DNA of 62,959 nucleotides, taken from Betaproteobacteria bacterium (GTDB taxonomy: Bacteria; Pseudomonadota; Gammaproteobacteria; Burkholderiales; JACQAP01). The translations under genes were made by a program, and so were the position numbers. Below, one piece after another: positions 3,286 to 13,912 of this stretch. The stretch covers positions 1-62,959 of the forward strand of contig JANXVW010000137.1 of the NCBI GenBank assembly GCA_025351455.1. Reading direction: 5' to 3'. The notes beneath the pieces are model-generated. The model did no database searches. It had not been told where the DNA came from and saw nothing but the letters and a program-made list of their open reading frames with translations. Within the stretch, counting starts at the first letter, position 1; each line of letters begins with the position of its first letter.

Positions 3286-6200
3286 TCAGAGAAGAACCCT
3301 TTCGATGCCGCCGTTATTGGCTTTGGCGACATAGTCCGCCATCCAGTTCTCGCCTAGCACATGTTTGGCAATCTCCACCACGATGTAGTCCGCGGTGGTA
3401 CCGGAGTCATTGTCGTAGCGCGACAGGCCCTGCAGGCAGGACGGGCAGGAAGTGAGAATCTTCACATCGCCCTTGAATCCATCCGTGCGCAGATTGTCGG
3501 CGCCTTTGCGCATTTCCTCTTCCTTGCGGAAACGCACCTGCGTGGAAATGTCGGGTCGTGTGACGGCCAGTGTGCCGGATTCTCCACAGCAACGATCGTT
3601 CAGCGTCACTTCCGTTCCCATCAGCTTGGTGACCACCTTCAGCGGCTGATAAGTCTTCATCGGCGTGTGGCAGGGATCGTGGTACATGTAGCGCACGCCG
3701 GTCACGCCTTCGAGGCGTACGTTTTTCTCCAGCAGGTATTCATGGATGTCGAGCAGCCGGCAGCCGGGGAAAATCTTGTCGAATTCGTATTTCTGCAATT
3801 GGTCCATGCAGGTTCCGCAGGACACCACCACCGTCTTGATGTCGAGGTAGTTCAGCGTATTGGCCACACGGTGAAACAGCACGCGGTTGTCGGTGCTGAT
3901 CTTCTGTCCTTTTTCCGCTTCACCAGCGGAAGTCTGCGGATAACCGCAGCACAGGTAACCGGGCGGCAACACGGTGATGGCGCCGACTTCGTACAACATG
4001 GCCTGGGTCGCGAGTCCCACCTGGCCGAACAGGCGCTCGCTGCCACAGCCCGGAAAATAGAAAACCGCGTCCGAATCTTCGTTCACTTTTTTCGGATCGC
4101 GGATCACCGGCACCATGCGGTTGTCTTCGATATCCAGCAACGCGCGCGAGGTCTTCTTCGGCAACCCGCCCGGCATCGGCTTGTTGATGATGTGGATCAC
4201 CTGCGCCTTGATCGACGGTTTGCCGAGCGTGGCCGGCGGATGCTTCACCTGCTCCTGAATCAGGCCCAGAGATTTCCCCGCGCGATAAGCCAGGCGCTGC
4301 GCGCGGAAGCCCCACTCGATCATGATTTTGCGGGTGACCTTGATGGTGTTCGGGTCGGTCGCGTTCAGGAACAGCATGGACGCGGCGGTGCCGGGATTGA
4401 ATTTCTTCTTGTTCTGGCGGCGCAGGAAATTGCGCATCGCGATCGATACGTCGCCGAAGTCGATGTCTACCGGACAGGGATTGAGGCACTTGTGGCAGAC
4501 CGTGCAATGATCGGCGACGTCGGAAAATTCGTCGAAGTGCCTGAGCGAGACCCCTCGGCGGGTCTGCTCCTCGTATAGAAAAGCCTCGATGAGCAGCGAC
4601 GTGGCGAGGATCTTGTTGCGCGGCGAATACAGCAGGTTCGCGCGCGGCACGTGGGTCGCGCACACCGGCTTGCACTTGCCGCAACGCAGGCAATCCTTGA
4701 TCGAATCGGAAATCTCGCCGATCGCGCTCTGCTCCAGGATCAGGCTCTCCAGTTCCAGCAGGTTGAAGCTGGGCGTGTAGGCGTTGTCGAGATTGGCGCC
4801 GGCCAGCAATTTACCCCGGTTGAAGCGCCCTTCGGGGTCCACGCGCTTCTTGTACCGCGCAAAGCTGTCCATTTCCTGCGGCTCGAGGTATTCCAATTTG
4901 GTAATGCCAATGCCGTGCTCGCCGGAGATCACACCGTTCAATGCCCGCGCCAGCTTCATGATGCGCGCAACGGCGACATTGGCTTCGTGCAGCATCGCGT
5001 AGTCGTCCGAATTGACCGGAATATTGGTATGCACGTTGCCGTCCCCGGCGTGCATGTGCAACGCCACGAACAACCGGCTTTTCAGGATGCGTTTGTGGAT
5101 GGCATTGATTTCAGCGCGGATCGGATCGAACGCGCGACCGTCGAAAATCTGCATCAGCGGCACGCATACCTCTGTCTTCCAGGACACACGAAGTGCATGG
5201 CTTTGAAGAGCGTGAAAAACCGTCGAGTTCGAGGTTTCTCCCTCACCCCTCGCCCCTCGCCCCTCACCCCTCGCATCGAGATCGCCAATCGGCGCATCGA
5301 GATTTTCGAGCATCCACTGCCACCGCTCTCGCGTCGAGCGCACCAGTTCGGTCGCGTTGGCCGGCCGGCCGCCGAGCACGTCGCCCTGCGGCAGCTTTTC
5401 GGCCTCCTGGTGCACGCGCAGCTCGCCTTGCAGCAATTCCTCCATCGCATCGAGCAGGCGGATCTTGTTCTTCAACGACAGTTCAATGTTGATGCGCTCG
5501 ATGCCGTCGGAGTAATCGCCGAGGCGATCGAGCGGAATGACCACGTCTTCGTTGATCTTGAAAGCGTTGGTGTGCCTGGCGATCGCGGCCGTGCGCGAGC
5601 GGTCGAGCCAGAACTGTTTGCGCGCTTCCGCCGAAACCGCAATGAAGCCCTCGCCGCCACGGGCGTTGGCAATCCGCACCACGGCGGAGGCGGCTTCGCC
5701 GACCGCCCTGTCGTCCTCGCCGACGATATCGGCGAGCAATACCATCTTCGGCCGGCCGCCGCGCTTGGCTTTGGTGGCATAGCCGACGGCCTTCACATAG
5801 CGCTCGTCGAGGTGCTCCAGTCCGGCGAGCGTCGCGCCGCCGGGACGGCGGTCGAGGAACGCCTTGATTTCCACGATCGAGGGCACGGAGTGGGCAACCT
5901 GGCCGTAGAACTCCAGGCAGACGGTGCGCGTATGCGCCGGCATCTTGTGCAGGATGAAGCGCGCCGACGTGATGATGCCGTCGCAACCTTCCTTCTGCAC
6001 GCCGGGCAGGCCGGCGAGAAATTTATCGGTGACATCCTTACCCAGGCCTTCCTTGCGAAACTGGCGTCCGGGCACTTCGAGGATTTCGGGTTCGCCTTGC
6101 GGCATCCTGCCGTCGCGGCCGAAGCGCGTGATGCGGAAGCGCGCCAGTTCCTGATCGTGGATTTTGCCGAGGTTGTGGTCGATGCGTTCGACCAGCATCC

Positions 6201-7182
6201 ACTCCGCCTGCGGCGTCACCATTCGCCACGAGGCAAGATTGTCGATCGCCGTACCCCACAGCACCGCTTTCTTGCCACCCGCGTTCATGGCGACGTTGCC
6301 GCCGATACACGACGCATCCGCCGAAGTCGGGTCGACGGCGAATACGCGGCCGGCGGCGTCTGCCGTTTCCATGACGCGGCGGGTGACCACGCCGGCGCCG
6401 CAGTGGATAGTCGGCACCGGTTCCGGCAATCCCGGCAGGGGCGTCATTTCCACGCCGCTCAGGGTTTCCAGTTTCTCGGTGTTGATGACCGCGGACAGTT
6501 TATCGAGCGGAATCGCGCCGCCGGTGTAGCCGGTACCGCCGCCGCGCGGAATGATGGTCAGCCCGAGCTCGATGCAGGCCTGCACCATGGGCTGCACTTC
6601 TTCTTCGGTGTCGGGATAGAGCACGACGAAAGGATATTCGACGCGCCAGTCGGTCGCATCGGTTACGTGCGACACGCGCGCCAGGCCGTCGAAAGCGACG
6701 TTGTCGCGGCGGGTGATGCGCGTAAACCGGCGCAAAGCCTTGCGCCGCAGCTTCGTGGTTTCCTCGAAGTCGCGCTCGAAATCGTCCACCGCCTGGTGCG
6801 CCGAGGCGAGCAACTGGGCGACTTTGTCGGTTACGTTGCCGGCCTCTTCGCCTTCGCCACTGTCCGGCCCGGTCCGGCGCAGTTCGATTTGATGCAGGCG
6901 ATGGCGCAATGCTTCGACCAGCGCGGTGCGGCGCCGTGGATTGTCCAGCATGTCGTCCTGCAGGTAGGGGTTGCGATCGACGACCCAGATGTCGCCCAGC
7001 ACTTCATAGAGCATGCGCGCCGAACGGCCGGTGCGGCGCTGGCTGCGCAGCTCGTCGAGCCTCTGCCACATCGGCGCGCCGAGCAGGCGGATCACGATTT
7101 CGCGATCGGAGAACGACGTGTAGTTGTAGGGGATCTCGCGAAGCCGGATGCCGGTGGAAGCAAAGGGGGGAATCGGTTGCAT
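3286..7182 (-). CDS. Large DUF3683 / FAD-linked oxidase (GlcD-like) / 4Fe-4S plus CCG-domain (GlcF-like) fusion oxidoreductase
   Basis: 1298 aa. The N-terminus has [17 protein letters not shown] (DUF3683-like). A FAD-binding PCMH region follows ([14 protein letters not shown]). Two ferredoxin-type clusters are present ([14 protein letters not shown]; [14 protein letters not shown]). The C-terminus has CCG-type motifs ([15 protein letters not shown]). Confidence 0.85.
5238..5274. repeat. Heptamer array (CACCCCT/CGCCCCT) inside the oxidoreductase CDS
   Basis: ctccct CACCCCT CGCCCCT CGCCCCT CACCCCT cgc on the plus strand. It encodes [11 protein letters not shown] in the minus-strand reading frame, and the gene stays open through it. 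Confidence 0.8.
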
Positions 7183-7212
7183 CTGTTTAGGACTTCAGGA
7201 CGGGAAAAGAAT

Positions 7213-7242
7213 TCTACCGCGACGCATCATTCTCTACCGCGA
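7213..7242. promoter_or_regulatory. 10-bp direct repeat (TCTACCGCGA x2, 20-bp period) upstream of the oxidoreductase gene
   Basis: Exact TCTACCGCGA at 7213-7222 and 7233-7242, in the 63-bp spacer between the yqaA stop and the oxidoreductase start. Any function is purely conjectural. Confidence 0.2.
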
Positions 7243-7245
7243 AGT

Positions 7246-7644
7246 TCACGCTACCAGCCGACCGATAAGATAGTAGCGACCGAATTTACCCAGTGCCATG
7301 AACAGCACCGACCCCCAGATACTGAGCCTCAACCACCCGGCAGCAACGCACAACGCGTCGCCGATGATCGGCACCCAGGACAGCAGCAGGACCGGGGCGC
7401 CCCAGCGCCGCGCCCATTCCAGCGCGCGCCCGCCAAGTTTGCGATCGGGCACAAGGCGGCCCACCAGATAGGAAGTCGAACCGCCGAGCGTATTGCCCAG
7501 TGTCGCTACGGCAAGCGCCGGCCAAAGACCGGCCGTGCCGCTGGAAAGCACGCCAGCGAAAACGAACTCGGAACCACCGGGAAGCAGCGTCGCCGCCAGA
7601 AAACTGCTCAGGAACAGCGCGCCAAGGCCGACGGATTCGTTCAA
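7246..7644 (-). CDS. YqaA-family (DedA/SNARE-associated-like) inner membrane protein
   Basis: 132 aa and hydrophobic: LFLSSFLAATLLPGGSEFVFAG...WGAPVLLLSWVPIIGDALCVAAGWLRL. Confidence 0.75.
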   Translation of the reverse strand: MNESVGLGALFLSSFLAATLLPGGSEFVFAGVLSSGTAGLWPALAVATLGNTLGGSTSYLVGRLVPDRKLGGRALEWARRWGAPVLLLSWVPIIGDALCVAAGWLRLSIWGSVLFMALGKFGRYYLIGRLVA

Positions 7645-8131
7645 TTGGACGGTGGAACCATCGGTTACGACGGAAGGGTGACGCGGCTAGGAGGAAGGCT
7701 TGATCCTCAAACTCACGCCTCTTGTTCAATCACTTAGCACCAACCAAAGCTACCGCCGTGAAGCACTTCAAGCGACACTAAGACGCATAATATCGAAATC
7801 CCGCATTTCGCGTGCAGCGGCGACTTGGTCACGAAACAATGCGATCGTTATACTTCAGAATCCTTGAACGTTAACGGCGTTCGAAGTTAAAGTGTTCAGA
7901 AACGGACGGATGAGGATTTGGATTTTTTCCGTAGCGCACTTATGACTGGGGTGATCGCCGCGTCCGCTTACTCTATGTGTGTGGAAGAGCCGCTCGCTAT
8001 ACGTTCGTCACAATCTCTATTCGGTCAGCGCCTGCTAGATTCCTAATACCGCTCCGCGCGCTCACGCTAACCGAGCGAAGTTCCGCGGCAATAGGCAACT
8101 TTCCCTTGTTAAAGTGCCGAGCAGGTCCAAT

Positions 8132-8140
8132 TGATATAAT
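8132..8140 (+). promoter_or_regulatory. Candidate extended -10 promoter (TGATATAAT) for the island cassette
   Basis: An exact TGnTATAAT lies 35 nt upstream of the ATG at 8176, in an A/T-rich leader. No good -35 was found. Confidence 0.35.
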
Positions 8141-8175
8141 CGCAGAATCGAGCCTGAACTGACGGCTCTGGTCTA

Positions 8176-8961
8176 ATGCGGTGGCAAACAGTGCATTACC
8201 AAAAAAACTACCTCTCCAACGTTGTGCTTCGCCTCGATTTTGAGCCAGTCCAAGCGCTGCGTCAGATCACCAAGGTAGACACTAAACCTGAATTTTCAGC
8301 CCGTGTTGCGGATATCTATCCGTTCGTCGTAGGCCAGCCGACAGCCAACCTTAGCGTTGTGATTGGTCCCACCGGAAGCGGCATCAATCAGCAAATAACT
8401 GGCGTCCAATGGAATCATCGGACCGAAGAGAACGGAACACGGGCAATTGCACTCGCATCTGATTTTCTGAGTGTCGAATACGGAAAAGAAGACTACGACC
8501 ATTTCCCGCCATTCCGAGCGGAGGTTGAGACGGCATTAAAAGCCCTTGAGGAACTGTACGACATTACCCACTTCACTAGGATTGGGCTACGCTATATCAA
8601 CGAGATTAGTATTCCGGAAGGTAATGCATTGGACTGGCAAGGAATAATTTCCGCGCCCCTCATAGCGGCAGTTATGGCAGGTAAAGAAGCCGACGCGAGT
8701 GTCGTTCGGTCAATGCATCAACTGCATGAGAGACGAGACGACTGCGACATGATCTTCAACTACGGCCTCCACAATCCAGATTTTCCGAATTCCCTTGTTC
8801 GGAGAGCCTTCATCTTAGATTACGATTGCTCAAAGTCTGCGGTAGAAGCGGGACAGGCATTACAAACAATTAACGGACTGAATAAATTTTGTGAAGGCAT
8901 GTTCGAACGCAGCATCGACGGCGAATTGCGAAACAAACTTGGAGTAATACCCAATGGCTAA
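8176..8961 (+). CDS. TIGR04255-like uncharacterised protein (island gene A)
   Basis: 261 aa. The N-terminal Y.KNYL..VVLRLDF and the central RIGLRYIN motif match my memory of the TIGR04255 family. No catalytic motif was recognised. The SD is weak. Confidence 0.7.
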   Translation: MRWQTVHYQKNYLSNVVLRLDFEPVQALRQITKVDTKPEFSARVADIYPFVVGQPTANLSVVIGPTGSGINQQITGVQWNHRTEENGTRAIALASDFLSVEYGKEDYDHFPPFRAEVETALKALEELYDITHFTRIGLRYINEISIPEGNALDWQGIISAPLIAAVMAGKEADASVVRSMHQLHERRDDCDMIFNYGLHNPDFPNSLVRRAFILDYDCSKSAVEAGQALQTINGLNKFCEGMFERSIDGELRNKLGVIPNG

Positions 8962-9190
8962 TAAAATGATAATCGCGACAACGGCAAATTCGACATCGGC
9001 GATTGCAACCCGTGACAAAGCCTACTTCACGCAATCGCCAACAAGGGAAACCGCAAATCCCCGCACTCCCACAGTTCTAGCCGCGACCAAAACTACGGTG
9101 GCCACGACGAAAACGATTGAAGCGGCTGACCCTTACCGTCAAAGCGCCCACAAGGTCGTTGTGAAACGGTATGCCGTTAATCGCGGGTAG
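8954..9190 (+). CDS. Small Thr/Ala-rich hypothetical protein (island gene B)
   Basis: 78 aa. Its ATG overlaps the gene A stop (ATGGCTAA). GGAG at 8941-8944 lies 9 nt upstream of the ATG. The 3' end overlaps gene C by 20 nt. The sequence is low-complexity, so it is uncertain whether this region is coding at all. Confidence 0.35.
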   Translation: MANKMIIATTANSTSAIATRDKAYFTQSPTRETANPRTPTVLAATKTTVATTKTIEAADPYRQSAHKVVVKRYAVNRG

Positions 9191-9758
9191 CCCCCAGTAC
9201 TTCAAATCCACCGCCAAGCGGTACGAACAAGGAGACATCCTCCGGGACGTGACGCTCATACAGTGGGCAGACGTGGAGGATGAGCGCGCCATTAATGTTG
9301 TCGAGCGTACGCTGCAGTATTGCGTTGTCGTTTCGCAGGAGTGCGACCTTGAACATGATTTCAACAACCGAGAAAAGCAAGACAAGAAGTCGGAAGACAA
9401 ATACCTCCAATCACTTCTGATCTGTCCAGCATATCAAGCCGAATCATTTCGAAAGGGCGAACATCTCAAGCAGTTGGAATTGAGAATGGAGGTCATCAAT
9501 AGCGACAACTGGAAGCGGCTGATTCAGAACAATCAGGCCCGCTATCACTACTTAGGTAGGCACGAGGATTTTCAGATCCCTGAACTGATTATTGATTTCA
9601 AGCACTACATGACAGTTCCGCGAGACATCTTATACCGTGAGAAATTTGAATCGTGCTACCTCGCCACGATCGAAATTTTGTTTCGCGATAGTCTCTCCGG
9701 ACGCTTTGCACAGTATCTTAGTCGCATTGGATTGCCTGACGAACTGACGTCTGTGTAG
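9171..9758 (+). CDS. Hypothetical protein with MazF/PemK-like motif order (island gene C)
   Basis: 195 aa. An in-frame TGA at 9162-9164 fixes the start. The motifs GDILRDV, CVVVSQECD, LLICPAY and LIIDFKHYMTVPRDIL occur in the same order as the PemK/MazF hallmarks (GDI.., RP.lVlS.d, v.v.PiTs, vl.dQirtiDk.rL), with longer linkers. This is pattern recognition only. Confidence 0.6.
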   Translation: MPLIAGSPQYFKSTAKRYEQGDILRDVTLIQWADVEDERAINVVERTLQYCVVVSQECDLEHDFNNREKQDKKSEDKYLQSLLICPAYQAESFRKGEHLKQLELRMEVINSDNWKRLIQNNQARYHYLGRHEDFQIPELIIDFKHYMTVPRDILYREKFESCYLATIEILFRDSLSGRFAQYLSRIGLPDELTSV

Positions 9759-9853
9759 TACGTATGCCACAAGACGGGCACTCACTAGCGGGAAGAACGA
9801 CCGATGCCCTCTGCAAACCAGACGTTCACGTGAGGGACGTGCGCCCAGCCACA

Positions 9854-11302
9854 CTAGTTTTGCATCTTTAAGATTTCCGCGCGGTATTCCAAAGCTTTAC
9901 CAAGTCGCGGATCATCATCTGGAAAAAGGGCCTTCATTCCGGAGCTCCTGCCATTTTCCACACCCCTCATGAAATCTCTATCGGCCACAATTTCGTTGCA
10001 ACATCGCAATATCTTCGGTCCGTCTACACCAAATAACTTCATGTACGCAGCTTCCGCTGCTTCTAGTGCGTCGTCCGATGTTGCAATCCCGCGACCTTGA
10101 ATAACCGAGTCCACTAAGCCGAACATCAGGCCCATGCTGTAGCGATCTTCCGATATGAGCCGTTTGGCTTTGTGCTCGTCCACCCCAGCATTTTCTATCT
10201 GAACGCGGAAAATCTGGAAGACAGCCTCCGCAGCTGATCCCGGAGTGTTGCCAATAACGCTTCGTATAAGAGGAAACGTAGAAACGTCAGTGCCTGACCC
10301 GGACAGTTTCGTTTCCGTCAATGCTTCCCTTTCCGCAGAAATAAGTCGCTCTGCTCGCTGCCTGATATAGAGCACCTTAGTCTGCTTGTCATCTCCGCCG
10401 CATTCCGCAAATACTCGAGTCCACAGTCCCTTGTCTGCGGTACCGTCTTCCAACTCTTTGGCTATGTCCGCATAGATACGTTCTTCGTCGACAGAAGCAT
10501 TTGTCGGAGATACAGCATGGTTTTTAGGAGGCGCTTTGTCGGAGGAATAGGATTCCATCGAAACCGCCGACATGGATGAGTTCGACGAACGAGTCGGCGT
10601 ACCCTCGGCCGGACGATCAAGCAACCGCCGCGTCAAATTACCGACCACGAGAAACCAAAGGCCCGCCACAAGGAGAGACATCGCGCATGCGGCAATCGAT
10701 CCGTAGTGCATGCCGATACTCTGATCCAGCGTGATATCGCCCCGGGAAGCACTCCTCAAGGCTTGTTTGACGATGGACCACATGAACATGTGAGCAATAA
10801 TCCAAAAAATCCACCATACAAGAAGAATTCCCGAGGAGGAAGACTTGCTCCATTCCTCCCCCCCTCCATGGTCAACAGCCCCGACTTTGTAGATTTCGTT
10901 GAGTACTTGGTATGGCTTGTATAGGTTCACTAAGGGAACTATCCAGCCCCACGCTTTCCATCCTTCGTGAACGAAACCAGTTGCCTTAAATCTTTCCTTC
11001 GCATACTCGTAGCATGCAGCCAGCCAACTAAAGAGTGCCAATCCGACACCGATAGCCGTTAGGATCAGGACATTCGCAAAGGAGTCCCAAAACTTAAGTC
11101 TGCTAACTGCAGATTCGTAGTTATCGATTTCTAAAACTCCTGAGCGGATGTCATTGAGAGCATTCACCGCCCACAAGTCAGTGCCCGCCACCAACACTGT
11201 GACGCCAATGTCGATTCCGAGCGCTATGAAAAGCAAGTCCTTGGCATTCACAAGTTTTTCCTGGGTCACTTGTTCGTCCCATGCACGCATGTCCAATGTC
11301 AT
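9854..11302 (-). CDS. DUF4328-type multi-pass membrane protein with an uncharacterised cytoplasmic C-terminal half (island gene D)
   Basis: 482 aa. There is a strong SD (AGGAG, 7-nt spacing). The N-terminal half has several TM segments and GWKAWGWIVPLVNLYKPYQVLNEIYK (DUF4328-like). A Ser-rich linker follows, then the recurrent motif DKGLWTRVFAECGGDDKQTKVLYIRQRAERL, then about 150 aa of unknown fold. Confidence 0.65.
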   Translation of the reverse strand: MTLDMRAWDEQVTQEKLVNAKDLLFIALGIDIGVTVLVAGTDLWAVNALNDIRSGVLEIDNYESAVSRLKFWDSFANVLILTAIGVGLALFSWLAACYEYAKERFKATGFVHEGWKAWGWIVPLVNLYKPYQVLNEIYKVGAVDHGGGEEWSKSSSSGILLVWWIFWIIAHMFMWSIVKQALRSASRGDITLDQSIGMHYGSIAACAMSLLVAGLWFLVVGNLTRRLLDRPAEGTPTRSSNSSMSAVSMESYSSDKAPPKNHAVSPTNASVDEERIYADIAKELEDGTADKGLWTRVFAECGGDDKQTKVLYIRQRAERLISAEREALTETKLSGSGTDVSTFPLIRSVIGNTPGSAAEAVFQIFRVQIENAGVDEHKAKRLISEDRYSMGLMFGLVDSVIQGRGIATSDDALEAAEAAYMKLFGVDGPKILRCCNEIVADRDFMRGVENGRSSGMKALFPDDDPRLGKALEYRAEILKMQN

Positions 11303-11589
11303 TTGATTCTCCTAATGCCCGCAACCTTTAGTCGGTCAGTTTGCCACCTACGCTCTTGGGAGAAAACGCGCGAGAGATTCTACTTCTAGGAAGTCTCTGG
11401 GATTCTTCACTTCGTTTTGGAGACGGTAATGTTCAAGTGAGCGGGCTGGCGCCCGACAACGCCGCGATCGGGTGTCTGTTGGCACAGAGCAAGGATTTAG
11501 CCACTGCAGGATTTGAGTAACTTAGCTCTCCCTACGATTGAGGAGTTAGCGCGGCTTCGAATTTTGCGAAGTGGAAGGGTCACACGAAT

Positions 11590-12830
11590 CTGCCCTGTGC
11601 GGCGCGTGAGCCGGCTTAATCGGGGCGGTTTCAATGACCAAGTGCAAAAAGCGAAGCATGATGCTTCTTGAAATCGAAAGCGTCCGGGGTGAACAAGTCA
11701 GCAGGGCAGCGTAAGCCCATCGACTTGCGTGGCCTGGTGTTCAGTTTCCAGGCAATGGTATCGAGCTGCGCCTGGGTGAAGCCGCTCAAGTCGCTGCCCT
11801 TGGGCAGGTACTGTCGCAACAATCCGTTAGTGTTCTCGTTGATTCCGCGCTGCCATGGACTGTGCGGATCGGCGAAGTACACCTTCACCCCGGTGGCCTC
11901 GGTCAGGCGTTGATGCTCCGTCACCTCCCGGCCTTGATCATAAGTCATCGACAGTCGCATTTGCGCCTCGATGCGATTGAGCACGTGACTGAAGCCGCTC
12001 AGCGCCGATTGCGCACTGGCGTCCCTCATCCTGGAGAGCACGGTGAACAAGGTGGTGCGCTCCACCAGCGTACCGACAGCCGAGCGATTGTGGGCCCCCT
12101 TGATCAGATCGCCCTCCCAGTGCCCGGGTATCAGCCGCTCTTCAACTTCAGGCGGCCGGTCATGAATGCTGACCATGTCAGGAATGCGTCCGCGCCGGTC
12201 TTCGCCCCGTGCGCGGGGACGGCGCTTGGCATGGCCGAATCGCAACCAGCCAATGATTTCCGTGCGCAGCTCGCCACGCGGCATGGCGTAGATCGCGGTG
12301 TAGATGGTTTCGTGAGAAACCCGCAACGAAGGCGTTTCGGAATGCACAAGCGCCAGTGTGCCGGCAATCTGCTCGGGCGAGTAGCCCGCCTTGAGGTATC
12401 GGATGACACGACCCCACAACGCGCCGCCAGGGCGCAACCGGCGCTCAACGTGCGGCGTGAGCGTGCAGGCTCGGGCGCGTTGGTGGGCGACTTCGGCTCG
12501 GTAGCCGCCCGCCACCGGGGGTCGTCCTGGACCGCGATCCTCCTTCGGGCGAACCCAGCCGTTTCGACGCAGTTCGCGAGAAAGCGTCGATGCCGACCGA
12601 TTCAACCCCAAGGCAATCGCCGCCGGTTTGACTCCCATCTCAAGTTGCGTCTGGATCATCGTTCGCTCTTCAATACCCACCGACCGTAACGTTTTCCCAT
12701 GCAACATTCTCTCCCACAAATGTTGCACTTGGTTTTTGAGCGCGCCCGGCTTTAACGGCGACATGCACGCACGAAATTCATTGATAACCTTTTAACTACT
12801 ACCTCACATGCGCCGAGGCCATCACATACG
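11590..12830 (-). mobile_element. IS30-family insertion sequence (ends approximate)
   Basis: A GC-rich block containing an IS30-type transposase sits inside A/T-richer island DNA. I could not define the terminal inverted repeats by eye. Confidence 0.55.
11631..12764 (-). CDS. IS30 family transposase
   Basis: N-terminal HTH (IALGLNRSASTLSRELRRN) and a DDE region (HWEGDLI...TYDQGRE...ADPHSPWQRGINENTNGLLRQYLPKG). An alternative start is the ATG at 12707 (MLHGKT...). Confidence 0.9.
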   Translation of the reverse strand: MSPLKPGALKNQVQHLWERMLHGKTLRSVGIEERTMIQTQLEMGVKPAAIALGLNRSASTLSRELRRNGWVRPKEDRGPGRPPVAGGYRAEVAHQRARACTLTPHVERRLRPGGALWGRVIRYLKAGYSPEQIAGTLALVHSETPSLRVSHETIYTAIYAMPRGELRTEIIGWLRFGHAKRRPRARGEDRRGRIPDMVSIHDRPPEVEERLIPGHWEGDLIKGAHNRSAVGTLVERTTLFTVLSRMRDASAQSALSGFSHVLNRIEAQMRLSMTYDQGREVTEHQRLTEATGVKVYFADPHSPWQRGINENTNGLLRQYLPKGSDLSGFTQAQLDTIAWKLNTRPRKSMGLRCPADLFTPDAFDFKKHHASLFALGH

Positions 12831-13174
12831 TAAGGGATCACATTCGCAGTCATGTTTCTCAATCGGCAGACGATCCTAGCCTCATTAAGCAAGTGTTCAG
12901 ATTTTTCACGCAACGTTTTATCGAGGGTTCGTAACGTGCCATTCTCCACCCCGTCGTCAGGACGGCCGTAAGTGTAGGCTCGAGAACCTCGCCGGGGGTT
13001 CTGTAAAGTTCGAGGAGGTCTTGCTGAATGGGCGGCGAACTACGTGGTCAAGTTTCACTTCTTTACCCACATCGAATCCTGCGGGTGCTGTGTAGCCCCG
13101 ATGAGTAGTAGACCAGAACGAGAACTTGGTTGAATCGAGCTAATTCTTTTGTGTAGAAAGCACTTAGAGGGAAT

Positions 13175-13251
13175 TGGCGCGCCCGAGACGATTCGAACGT
13201 CCGACCACTGCCTTCGGAGGGCAGTACTCTATCCAGCTGAGCTACGGGCGC
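13175..13251 (-). tRNA. tRNA-Arg (anticodon CCG)
   Basis: Folded by hand: GCGCCCGTAGCTCAGCTGGATAGAGTACTGCCCTCCGAAGGCAGTGGTCGGACGTTCGAATCGTCTCGGGCGCGCCA. It has a 7-bp acceptor stem, anticodon loop CTCCGAA, T-loop TTCGAAT and an encoded CCA. Confidence 0.9.
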
Positions 13252-13366
13252 ATCGGGTTCGAAGTTTACGGCCAAAGGGCATTCGAGTCCATTGCCCCGC
13301 TTTTTAGGGGTGGTCGAATAGCCTATAATTTGCGCCTTCCAAAGGTTTAACCGCAAAGGATTTTTC

Positions 13367-13912
13367 ATGTCCGAAGTGCATGTCGAGGACCACTCCTCGC
13401 TGATCAAGACCCCCCAGCAACTGATCGTGGTCGTCGTGCTGGCGTTTGTCATTCCCGTCGTGGGAATCGTCATGATCGCCAGCGCCATTACCGGCGGGCT
13501 GAAGACCGAAGCCGCCGGCGATGCCGGGGCCGTTGCGGAACGCCTCAAGCCGGTCGGGACCGTGGTAATCGGTGACGTCCCGGCGCCAGCCGCGGGAGCG
13601 CAACCCGCAGCCGCGGCAAGCGGGGTGAAGTCCTCGAGCGGCGAACCGATCAAGACAGCCGCGGCGGGCGGTCCGGGCGCCGGGAAAAAACTCTATGACA
13701 CGGTCTGCATGGCCTGTCATGCCGCGGGTCTCGCGGGTGCGCCGAAGACCGGCGACAAAGCAGCCTGGAAACCGCGCATCGCCACCGGCAAGGAAGCGCT
13801 CTACAACAGCGCGCTGCACGGCAAGAACGCCATGCCGCCGAAGGGTGGTTCATCGGCTGCGGATGCCGACGTCAAGGCTGCGGTGGACTACCTGGTGGGG
13901 CTCGCAAAGTGA
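13367..13912 (+). CDS. Membrane-anchored cytochrome c5-type (class I) cytochrome c
   Basis: An N-terminal TM segment, an Ala/Pro-rich linker, the haem motif CMACH, and KNAMPPKGG (Met ligand region). Confidence 0.8.
   Translation: MSEVHVEDHSSLIKTPQQLIVVVVLAFVIPVVGIVMIASAITGGLKTEAAGDAGAVAERLKPVGTVVIGDVPAPAAGAQPAAAASGVKSSSGEPIKTAAAGGPGAGKKLYDTVCMACHAAGLAGAPKTGDKAAWKPRIATGKEALYNSALHGKNAMPPKGGSSAADADVKAAVDYLVGLAK

Follow-up and report, generated by a model that had tools for sequence, protein, structure and literature searches.

Background

Among the described toxin-antitoxin (TA) systems, MazEF, Kis-Kid (PemIK) and CcdAB associate a short and fast-evolving gene with the MazF/CcdB-fold gene that it precedes and overlaps. 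The MazF fold is known mainly from toxins, and the toxins of the type III systems ToxIN and AbiQ, proteins of about 170-190 aa acting in abortive infection, have a Kid/MazF-related fold. In omega-epsilon-zeta and PaaR2-PaaA2-ParE2, a third component precedes the small antitoxin and the toxin, PaaA2 being a small intrinsically disordered antitoxin. Three protein components are also present in the toxin-antitoxin-chaperone (TAC) systems, represented by HigBA-SecB TAC and CmdTAC (PMC11618068; bioRxiv 10.1101/2024.02.24.581848). The present study deals with a cassette of three overlapping genes, hereafter A, B and C, found in a 62,959-nucleotide stretch of DNA from a member of the Burkholderiales (“Betaproteobacteria bacterium”, assembly GCA_025351455.1, contig JANXVW010000137.1, positions 1 to 62,959 of the forward strand), which is referred to as the window. 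An initial annotation, made by a model from the sequence, considered this cassette as a candidate tripartite TA or defence module. This reading is plausible and partly supported by the analyses reported here, from which we infer the activity, the partners and the trigger of the putative module.

The cassette resembles MazEF, Kis-Kid and CcdAB by the position of B, a short fast-evolving gene located upstream of C and overlapping it, by the predicted MazF/CcdB-type fold of C, and by being small, mobile and sporadic. It differs from them by C, which has no sequence match with their toxins in the Pfam and Protein Data Bank (PDB) searches, is about 80 aa longer, is acidic and displays invariant motifs of its own, by B, which has no AbrB or ribbon-helix-helix (RHH) domain detectable with Pfam or NCBIfam, and by the constant presence of A, a third and larger gene. 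A third protein and a putative disordered neutraliser are shared with TAC and CmdTAC, and the two-motif layout of B would suit a bridge; however, A has no SecB match in Pfam, opens the operon instead of closing it and has a sensing role that is only putative, and the predicted fold of C differs from that of HigB and from that of the ADP-ribosyltransferase CmdT. The order of a third component, a small antitoxin without DNA-binding domain and a toxin is that of omega-epsilon-zeta and PaaR2-PaaA2-ParE2, but A is an acidic protein of 256 aa with enzyme-like residues and no helix-turn-helix (HTH) or RHH signature, and the putative toxin C is of another family. Unlike ToxIN and AbiQ, the cassette has a protein-coding B and no tandem-repeat RNA antitoxin near C, and is thus not of type III. 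As for A, it is a full-length member of TIGR04255, an NCBIfam family of “sporadically distributed” uncharacterised proteins, the name of which says nothing on function. No publication on TIGR04255, CHP04255 or IPR026349 was found by a full-text search whose scope did not extend to supplementary tables and subscription journals, and the constant linkage of TIGR04255 to a small open reading frame (ORF) and a MazF-fold protein appeared in no paper found. The cassette is thus TA-like and tripartite in layout, with undescribed components.

Results and discussion

Conservation and extent of the three-gene cassette

A scan of a collection of 185,579 species genomes (one genome per species) retrieved 158 relatives of C, which denotes a sporadic distribution. 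Linkage was determined on 86 sequences, comprising 80 loci fetched among these 158 matches, five metagenome loci and the window. In 82 of the 86, C is immediately preceded by a homologue of A, in the same orientation and at a distance of 45-341 nt; the remaining four are truncated, C being located at most about 220 nt from the end of the contig. The three genes co-occur, with overlapping ends, wherever the sequences allow a test, B being also present in nearly all loci, and the recurrence of this order places the arrangement far beyond chance.

The limits of the cassette were defined by nucleotide comparison (blastn). Two loci (L092 and L093) are 93% identical to the window over exactly positions 8106-9777 and have unrelated flanks, and a third one (L094) is 70% identical over positions 8170-9757; these close relatives of the cassette carry other neighbouring genes, and no fourth gene is conserved across the loci. 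The moving unit is thus composed of the promoter region and genes A, B and C, over about 1.67 kb. It is narrower than the 7.9-11.4 kb segment that had been suggested as the unit for functional assays, and leaves outside a neighbouring gene encoding a DUF4328 protein.

Organization of the cassette

The coordinates of the cassette and of its surroundings are given in Table 1. The three ORFs lie on the same strand and are joined by overlaps of 8 nt (A/B) and 20 nt (B/C), as anticipated by the initial annotation. The start codon of B falls within ATGGCTAA (8954-8961), which also holds the stop codon of A (TAA, 8959-8961), and is preceded by the announced GGAG. The stop codon of B is a TAG at 9188-9190. 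The start of C (ATG 9171) is located inside B and is fixed by an in-frame TGA (9162-9164) 9 nt upstream, both having been correctly predicted.

Table 1 Features of the cassette and of its surroundings in the window
Feature	Position	Strand	Remarks
Whole cassette	8106..9777	+	Block conserved and moving as a unit: promoter region, A, B and C
Extended -10 promoter-like element, TGATATAAT	8132..8140	+	Sequence reading; 35 nt before ATG 8176
Gene A, TIGR04255 family	8191..8961	+	256 aa from GTG; 261 aa from the alternative ATG 8176
GGAG Shine-Dalgarno sequence for B	8941..8944	+	Inside the 3' end of A; 9 nt before ATG 8954
Gene B, low-complexity basic protein	8954..9190	+	78 aa
Gene C, acidic putative effector with a predicted MazF/CcdB-type fold	9171..9758	+	195 aa
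DUF4328 membrane protein	9854-11302	-	482 aa; domain at residues 79-224, E=5e-19; long C-terminal soluble extension
IS30-family element	11618-12752		Imperfect 30-nt inverted repeats at 11618-11647 and 12723-12752
IS30 transposase	11631-12764	-	NF033563, 289 bits
tRNA-Arg(CCG)	13175-13251	-	Borders the low-GC stretch

The extended -10 element had been placed 35 nt upstream of A. The element was found again, and only its distance to the gene has to be revised. The homologues of A open with MHY and gene callers give lengths of 256-257 aa, and the relative with 70% identity lacks an ATG at the upstream position but retains the GTG; GTG 8191, rather than ATG 8176, is thus taken as the conserved start, and the -10 element stands 50 nt upstream of it. 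TGNTATAAT occurs once in the whole window, at this very position, for 0.23 occurrence expected. TATAAT is conserved in the relatives with 93% and 70% nucleotide identity, the aligned position reading TGGTATAAT in the two closest ones and TATAAT in the more distant one. A standard two-hexamer (-35/-10) promoter scan did not report the site at 8132-8140, which we read as the lack of a usable -35 hexamer; the element is therefore described as promoter-like, of the extended -10 type.

Gene C, a putative effector with a predicted MazF/CcdB-type fold

C has 281 homologues and, among the 120 listed, all are unnamed, “hypothetical” or “uncharacterised”. The protein has no match in Pfam (E<=1), NCBIfam or PADLOC, and a weak one in PHROGs (phrog_4575, a group of unknown function, E=2.5e-4). 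Its AlphaFold2 model has a predicted local distance difference test score (pLDDT) of 88.4 and a predicted template-modelling (TM) score (pTM) of 0.83. When this model was compared to the PDB with Foldseek, the top 50 matches were all MazF proteins (best E=1.5e-3, probability 0.87-1.0), with target-normalised TM scores of 0.53-0.68 and about 7% identity. In our reading of the model, the succession of the strands and the presence of a long helix at the C-terminus match the MazF/Kid topology, and C is predicted to have an SH3-like barrel with a MazF/CcdB-type fold.

The family possesses numerous invariant residues (R17, Q20, Q56, C58, D59, D63, D76, K77, H98, R124, D142, K144, R172, S176, R178 and R185), which draw the motifs Q-x-C-D-L, D-K, H, R-Y-H and D-F-K-H and include a strictly conserved polar cluster (Q56, C58, D59, D63, D76, K77, H98, R124, D142 and K144). 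The isoelectric point (pI) of C is 5.5, with a family median of 5.8, and its acidic nature suggests that the target may be a protein or a small molecule rather than RNA. No tandem repeat was detected at 7500-10000, and the Rfam search of 7000-13500 gave a tRNA only, so that a protein partner is expected for C. C has the lowest ratio of non-synonymous to synonymous substitution rates (dN/dS), 0.06; that of A is 0.14, and the non-overlapping part of B gives 0.27-0.41. We read this order as the usual TA pattern, which combines a conserved toxin with a fast-evolving partner.

Gene B, a fast-evolving small protein

As a low-complexity protein without family match in Pfam, NCBIfam, PADLOC or PHROGs, B might have been suspected not to be a gene, and the triad to result from chance or from an annotation artefact. 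This explanation is already contradicted and appears practically untenable. A small ORF of 38-119 aa (median 64) occupies the gap between A and C in nearly all loci, mostly overlapping both neighbours, and these ORFs share two motifs. Of 75 non-redundant loci, 59 have a forward frame that stays open over the whole gap, whereas the reverse strand yields 19 and shuffled sequences 6.5. The dN/dS remains below 0.5, and the same triad, B included, emerges from independent gene calls, made by the NCBI pipeline in Methylocystis and by metagenome gene callers. B is a real gene.

Of the two motifs, [D/E]-Y-F-x-x-S-x-T lies near the N-terminus and Y-x-x-[S/G]-K-x-[K/R]-x-V-x-[K/R] forms the C-terminal end, on both sides of a variable, low-complexity middle in which Ser, Thr and Lys abound. 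Basic and hydrophobic residues alternate in the C-terminal motif as they would in a beta-strand, and its median pI is 10.6, the whole B having a pI of 10.5. This motif overlaps, in another frame, the N-terminus of C, which is variable and modelled with low confidence, so that the constraint on the overlap belongs to B. With such a composition B looks disordered, in agreement with the small disordered protein of the initial annotation. Some over-long homologues were considered as possible A-B or B-C fusions and were rejected, as they look like upstream start-codon extensions.

Gene A, a TIGR04255 protein

The assignment of A to TIGR04255, previously proposed as a likeness, corresponds to a full-length match with TIGR04255.1 (111.6 bits for a cutoff of 30, E=5e-32; residues 8-256 on positions 2-252 of the 252 of the model). 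No Pfam match was found at E<=1, SecB included, and no HTH or RHH signature was identified. Single-sequence and profile searches retrieved no PDB match, the only hit in PADLOC-DB v2 (PDC-S39, E=0.047, 10.4 bits) is noise, and PHROGs gave none. The initial annotation had recognised no component of the cassette as part of a described defence or TA system, and the scans of Pfam, NCBIfam and PADLOC lead to the same view for the three proteins.

A is an acidic alpha/beta protein (pI 5.2), in which the motifs R-x-G-L-R-Y and L-D-x-D are invariant across the superfamily. Its AlphaFold2 model has a pLDDT of 92 and a pTM of 0.88. SecB is not among the 50 PDB matches listed by Foldseek for this model, and folds of the S-adenosylmethionine decarboxylase (AdoMetDC) proenzyme and CYTH types were discarded, the PDB matches being too weak to be used. 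The order of the secondary structures, S1-H1-S2-S3-S4-S5-H2 roughly twice, is reminiscent of the repeats of the TATA-binding protein (TBP), and a Marseillevirus TBP occurs among the weak matches in BFVD (E=4e-3). However, the alignment of the two halves with hhalign revealed no repeat at the sequence level; together with the weakness of the structural matches, this makes the TBP-like reading a lead only.

The wider TIGR04255 superfamily

An exhaustive profile search of proteins clustered at 50% returned 4,569 representatives at E<=1e-3, of which 1,569 at E<=1e-10 and 475 at E<=1e-30. Six distant members were sampled by contig (L087, L088, L089, L096, L097 and L098), and all six head overlapping three-gene operons, which suggests that A is the invariable leading gene of a cassette built in modules. 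The other two genes differ among these operons. The middle gene encodes about 130-170 aa in L087, L088 and L097, where the third is a clear member of the C family; in L096 and L098 the middle proteins reach 244 and 274 aa and the third ones 280 and 289 aa, with an N-terminal motif GD..[S/T]Q.CDL; in L089 a middle protein of 240 aa is followed by one of 179 aa without similarity to C. The middle protein of L096 matches HTH_23 below the cutoff (22.2 bits, E=1e-4).

In two of these loci (L096 3116-5515 and L098 579-3054), the third genes keep GD/GS..[S/T]Q.CDL on a larger body, an organization suggesting that the middle and effector genes are exchanged as modules. In the Nitrospirota locus L087, a clear C-family ORF (6173-6754) follows the distant TIGR04255 gene and was missed by the gene caller of the record; it reads QGEI...SQDCDLLQD...ERYHFL...IDFKRYFSVP...RIGLPED. 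This locus also carries a ParE/antitoxin pair and a BrnT/BrnA pair.

From these operons, TIGR04255 might be regarded as the common first gene of a large and unrecognised superfamily of three-gene conflict cassettes (about 4,570 clusters), in which A would act as a sensor or stabiliser of a novel type, associated with an exchangeable middle neutraliser and an equally exchangeable, divergent effector with a MazF/CcdB core. The Q-x-C-D-L site of this effector may have an activity other than the RNA cleavage by MazF or the gyrase poisoning by CcdB. This extension is tentative and we would sooner doubt it than adopt it. Such a superfamily could span bacteria, the candidate phyla radiation (CPR) and archaea, with a middle protein that could be a disordered peptide of 60 aa here and an HTH-like protein of about 250 aa elsewhere.

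Distribution and genomic neighbourhoods

The 80 fetched loci belong to Beta-, Gamma-, Alpha- and Deltaproteobacteria, Acidobacteriota, Planctomycetota, Verrucomicrobiota, Bacteroidota, Nitrospirota, Chloroflexota and many Patescibacteria (CPR), and among archaea to Methanoperedens, ANME-2, Methanosarcinales, Methanotrichaceae, Methanobacteriota and Nanoarchaeota. Genes of mobile elements found in the vicinity of the cassette encode large serine recombinases (10 loci within 8 kb), tyrosine integrases of the P4 and XerC types and transposases, and many loci have no recognisable neighbour of this kind. Defence-related neighbours include restriction-modification systems (EcoRI, type IIG/ISP, type III and type I), SNase, NYN, SoFic and capP. 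On a Methylocystis plasmid, a recombinase gene and one annotated as “abortive infection family protein” precede the triad.

The only full triad on a viral contig (IMGVR_UViG_3300016722_000157, L086 7155-8570; A, B and C of 242, 59 and 186 aa) stands just downstream of genes resembling a lysis module, which encode membrane proteins and a peptidase-like ORF, a position typical of phage accessory genes.

Genomic setting in the window

The cassette of the window is included in a low-GC stretch of about 7700-11500 (GC of ~0.47-0.52 at 8000-11500), most of the flanks having values of ~0.60-0.66. The DUF4328 gene belongs to the same stretch and is convergent with C. Besides the window, an identical contig (L006) is the sole locus where this gene stands next to the cassette, and its position outside the homology block excludes it from the cassette. 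An IS30-family insertion sequence separates the low-GC stretch from a tRNA-Arg gene, and no att-type direct repeats of the 3' end of this tRNA were found around the island. Farther upstream, a 1298-aa ORF on the reverse strand (3286-7182) resembles, by eye, a fusion of FAD-linked oxidase, Fe-S and cysteine-rich (CCG-type) domains of the glycolate/D-lactate dehydrogenase type; the opposite strand carries an ORF of 1028 aa (4651-7737), probably a spurious shadow due to the high GC content.

Functional interpretation of the cassette

The association of a protein with a predicted MazF/CcdB-type fold, a small fast-evolving partner coupled to it and an autonomous and sporadic cassette led us to rank first a tripartite module of the TA or abortive-infection type, self-contained and horizontally mobile, in which the part of effector would fall to C, that of labile neutraliser or adaptor to B, and that of sensor, stabiliser or regulator to A. 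We consider this reading to have about an even chance of being correct. According to this model, C would arrest growth and would be kept inactive by B, the basic strand-like C-terminal motif of which would dock onto the acidic C, while the N-terminal Y-F motif would contact A. The latter could sense a trigger such as phage infection or, in a chaperone-like manner, stabilise B, and the loss or displacement of B would free C. The overlapping stop and start codons would set the A:B:C ratio through translational coupling. The charge complementarity between B, with its basic tail, and the acidic proteins A and C, read from the compositions, was counted in favour of a TA function.

Several observations weigh against this interpretation. 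The structural similarity of C to MazF has a Foldseek E-value of only ~1e-3 and a root-mean-square deviation of ~7 A, and no sequence or profile match with PemK, MazF or CcdB was obtained with Pfam or with phmmer and the family profile against PDB chains. An hhalign comparison of C with five MazF/Kid/ChpBK sequences matched QGDI to RGDI and nothing more (probability 0.1). Being acidic, unlike the RNA-binding MazF toxins, C fits a MazF-type RNase poorly, and it is about 80 aa longer than MazF. The MazF pattern that the initial annotation had perceived in C is thus recovered in the predicted fold and not in the sequence. B has no AbrB, RHH, HTH or Phd/YefM DNA-binding domain according to Pfam and NCBIfam, and its binding partner is a guess. 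For A, Foldseek gave nothing in the PDB at E<1e-3, with TM scores <=0.27, and the fold is uninformative; the structure searches recommended by the initial annotation were therefore productive for C and delivered no convincing neighbour for A. The best BFVD match of A is an unnamed viral protein of 202 aa (A0A515MGR4, E=1e-6, TM score of 0.51 on the target), from which phages may encode a relative or a mimic of A. Among 130 immediate neighbours of the cassette, several are restriction-modification, nuclease, SoFic, capP or recombinase genes, but many are housekeeping genes, so that an enrichment in defence islands is only suggestive. Finally, the cassette was found in one of 72,556 plasmid records, was absent from the phage collection and was represented by a single copy in IMG/VR.

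B and C could form a plain TA pair for which A would only be a dedicated transcriptional regulator, with no part in sensing or neutralisation, as in omega-epsilon-zeta and PaaR2-PaaA2-ParE2. The succession of a large gene, a small labile protein and a toxin-like gene mirrors the regulator-antitoxin-toxin operons, a separate regulator would make sense next to a B devoid of DNA-binding domain, and the TBP-like traits of A (repeat-like secondary structure, weak viral match) point in the same direction. On the other hand, the size and acidity of A and its lack of HTH or RHH signature are not those expected of a mere regulator, its invariant Arg/His/Asp cluster is more like a ligand or catalytic site, and A is more conserved than B and belongs to a superfamily of 4,569 clusters heading cassettes with differing middle and third genes; this explanation seems rather unlikely. 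The enzyme-like invariant polar sets of A and C, to which a Cys and a His of C belong, could also be those of modifying or cleaving enzymes acting on B as a ribosomal precursor peptide, the conserved termini of which would be recognition ends around a hypervariable Ser/Thr-rich core, and the length range of B and the sporadic distribution of the cassette are compatible with natural-product clusters. But the triad, which is only 1.7 kb long and moves alone, is accompanied by no conserved transporter, protease, immunity or other tailoring gene, C resembles MazF, and B is under purifying selection along its length with no clear leader/core split, so that peptide processing is distinctly improbable.

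The frequent proximity of integrases and recombinases and the viral-contig copy that follows lysis-like genes would agree with a non-toxic accessory function of mobile elements (exclusion, anti-defence or DNA-transaction helper) or with a housekeeping-like complex of three subunits, and the acidity of C argues against a classical RNase toxin. The unrelated flanks, many of them without a mobile-element neighbour, and the near-absence of the cassette from the phage and plasmid collections argue against an accessory module, and the MazF-type fold preceded by a small disordered partner is a TA hallmark. We regard this possibility as unlikely, and retain the tripartite module of the TA or abortive-infection type as the favoured interpretation.

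Conclusions

If the cassette is a working TA or defence module, it would introduce a new type of third component, with the TIGR04255 fold for which there is no solved relative, together with a very short disordered antitoxin or adaptor built on two motifs, which would be new as well, and a MazF-fold effector invisible to sequence-based methods and harbouring a different conserved site. A family counting thousands of proteins, to which no function is assigned at present, would moreover receive one. The hosts of the cassette include CPR bacteria as well as methanogenic and anaerobic methanotrophic (ANME) archaea, lineages in which tests of immunity or TA systems are still scarce.

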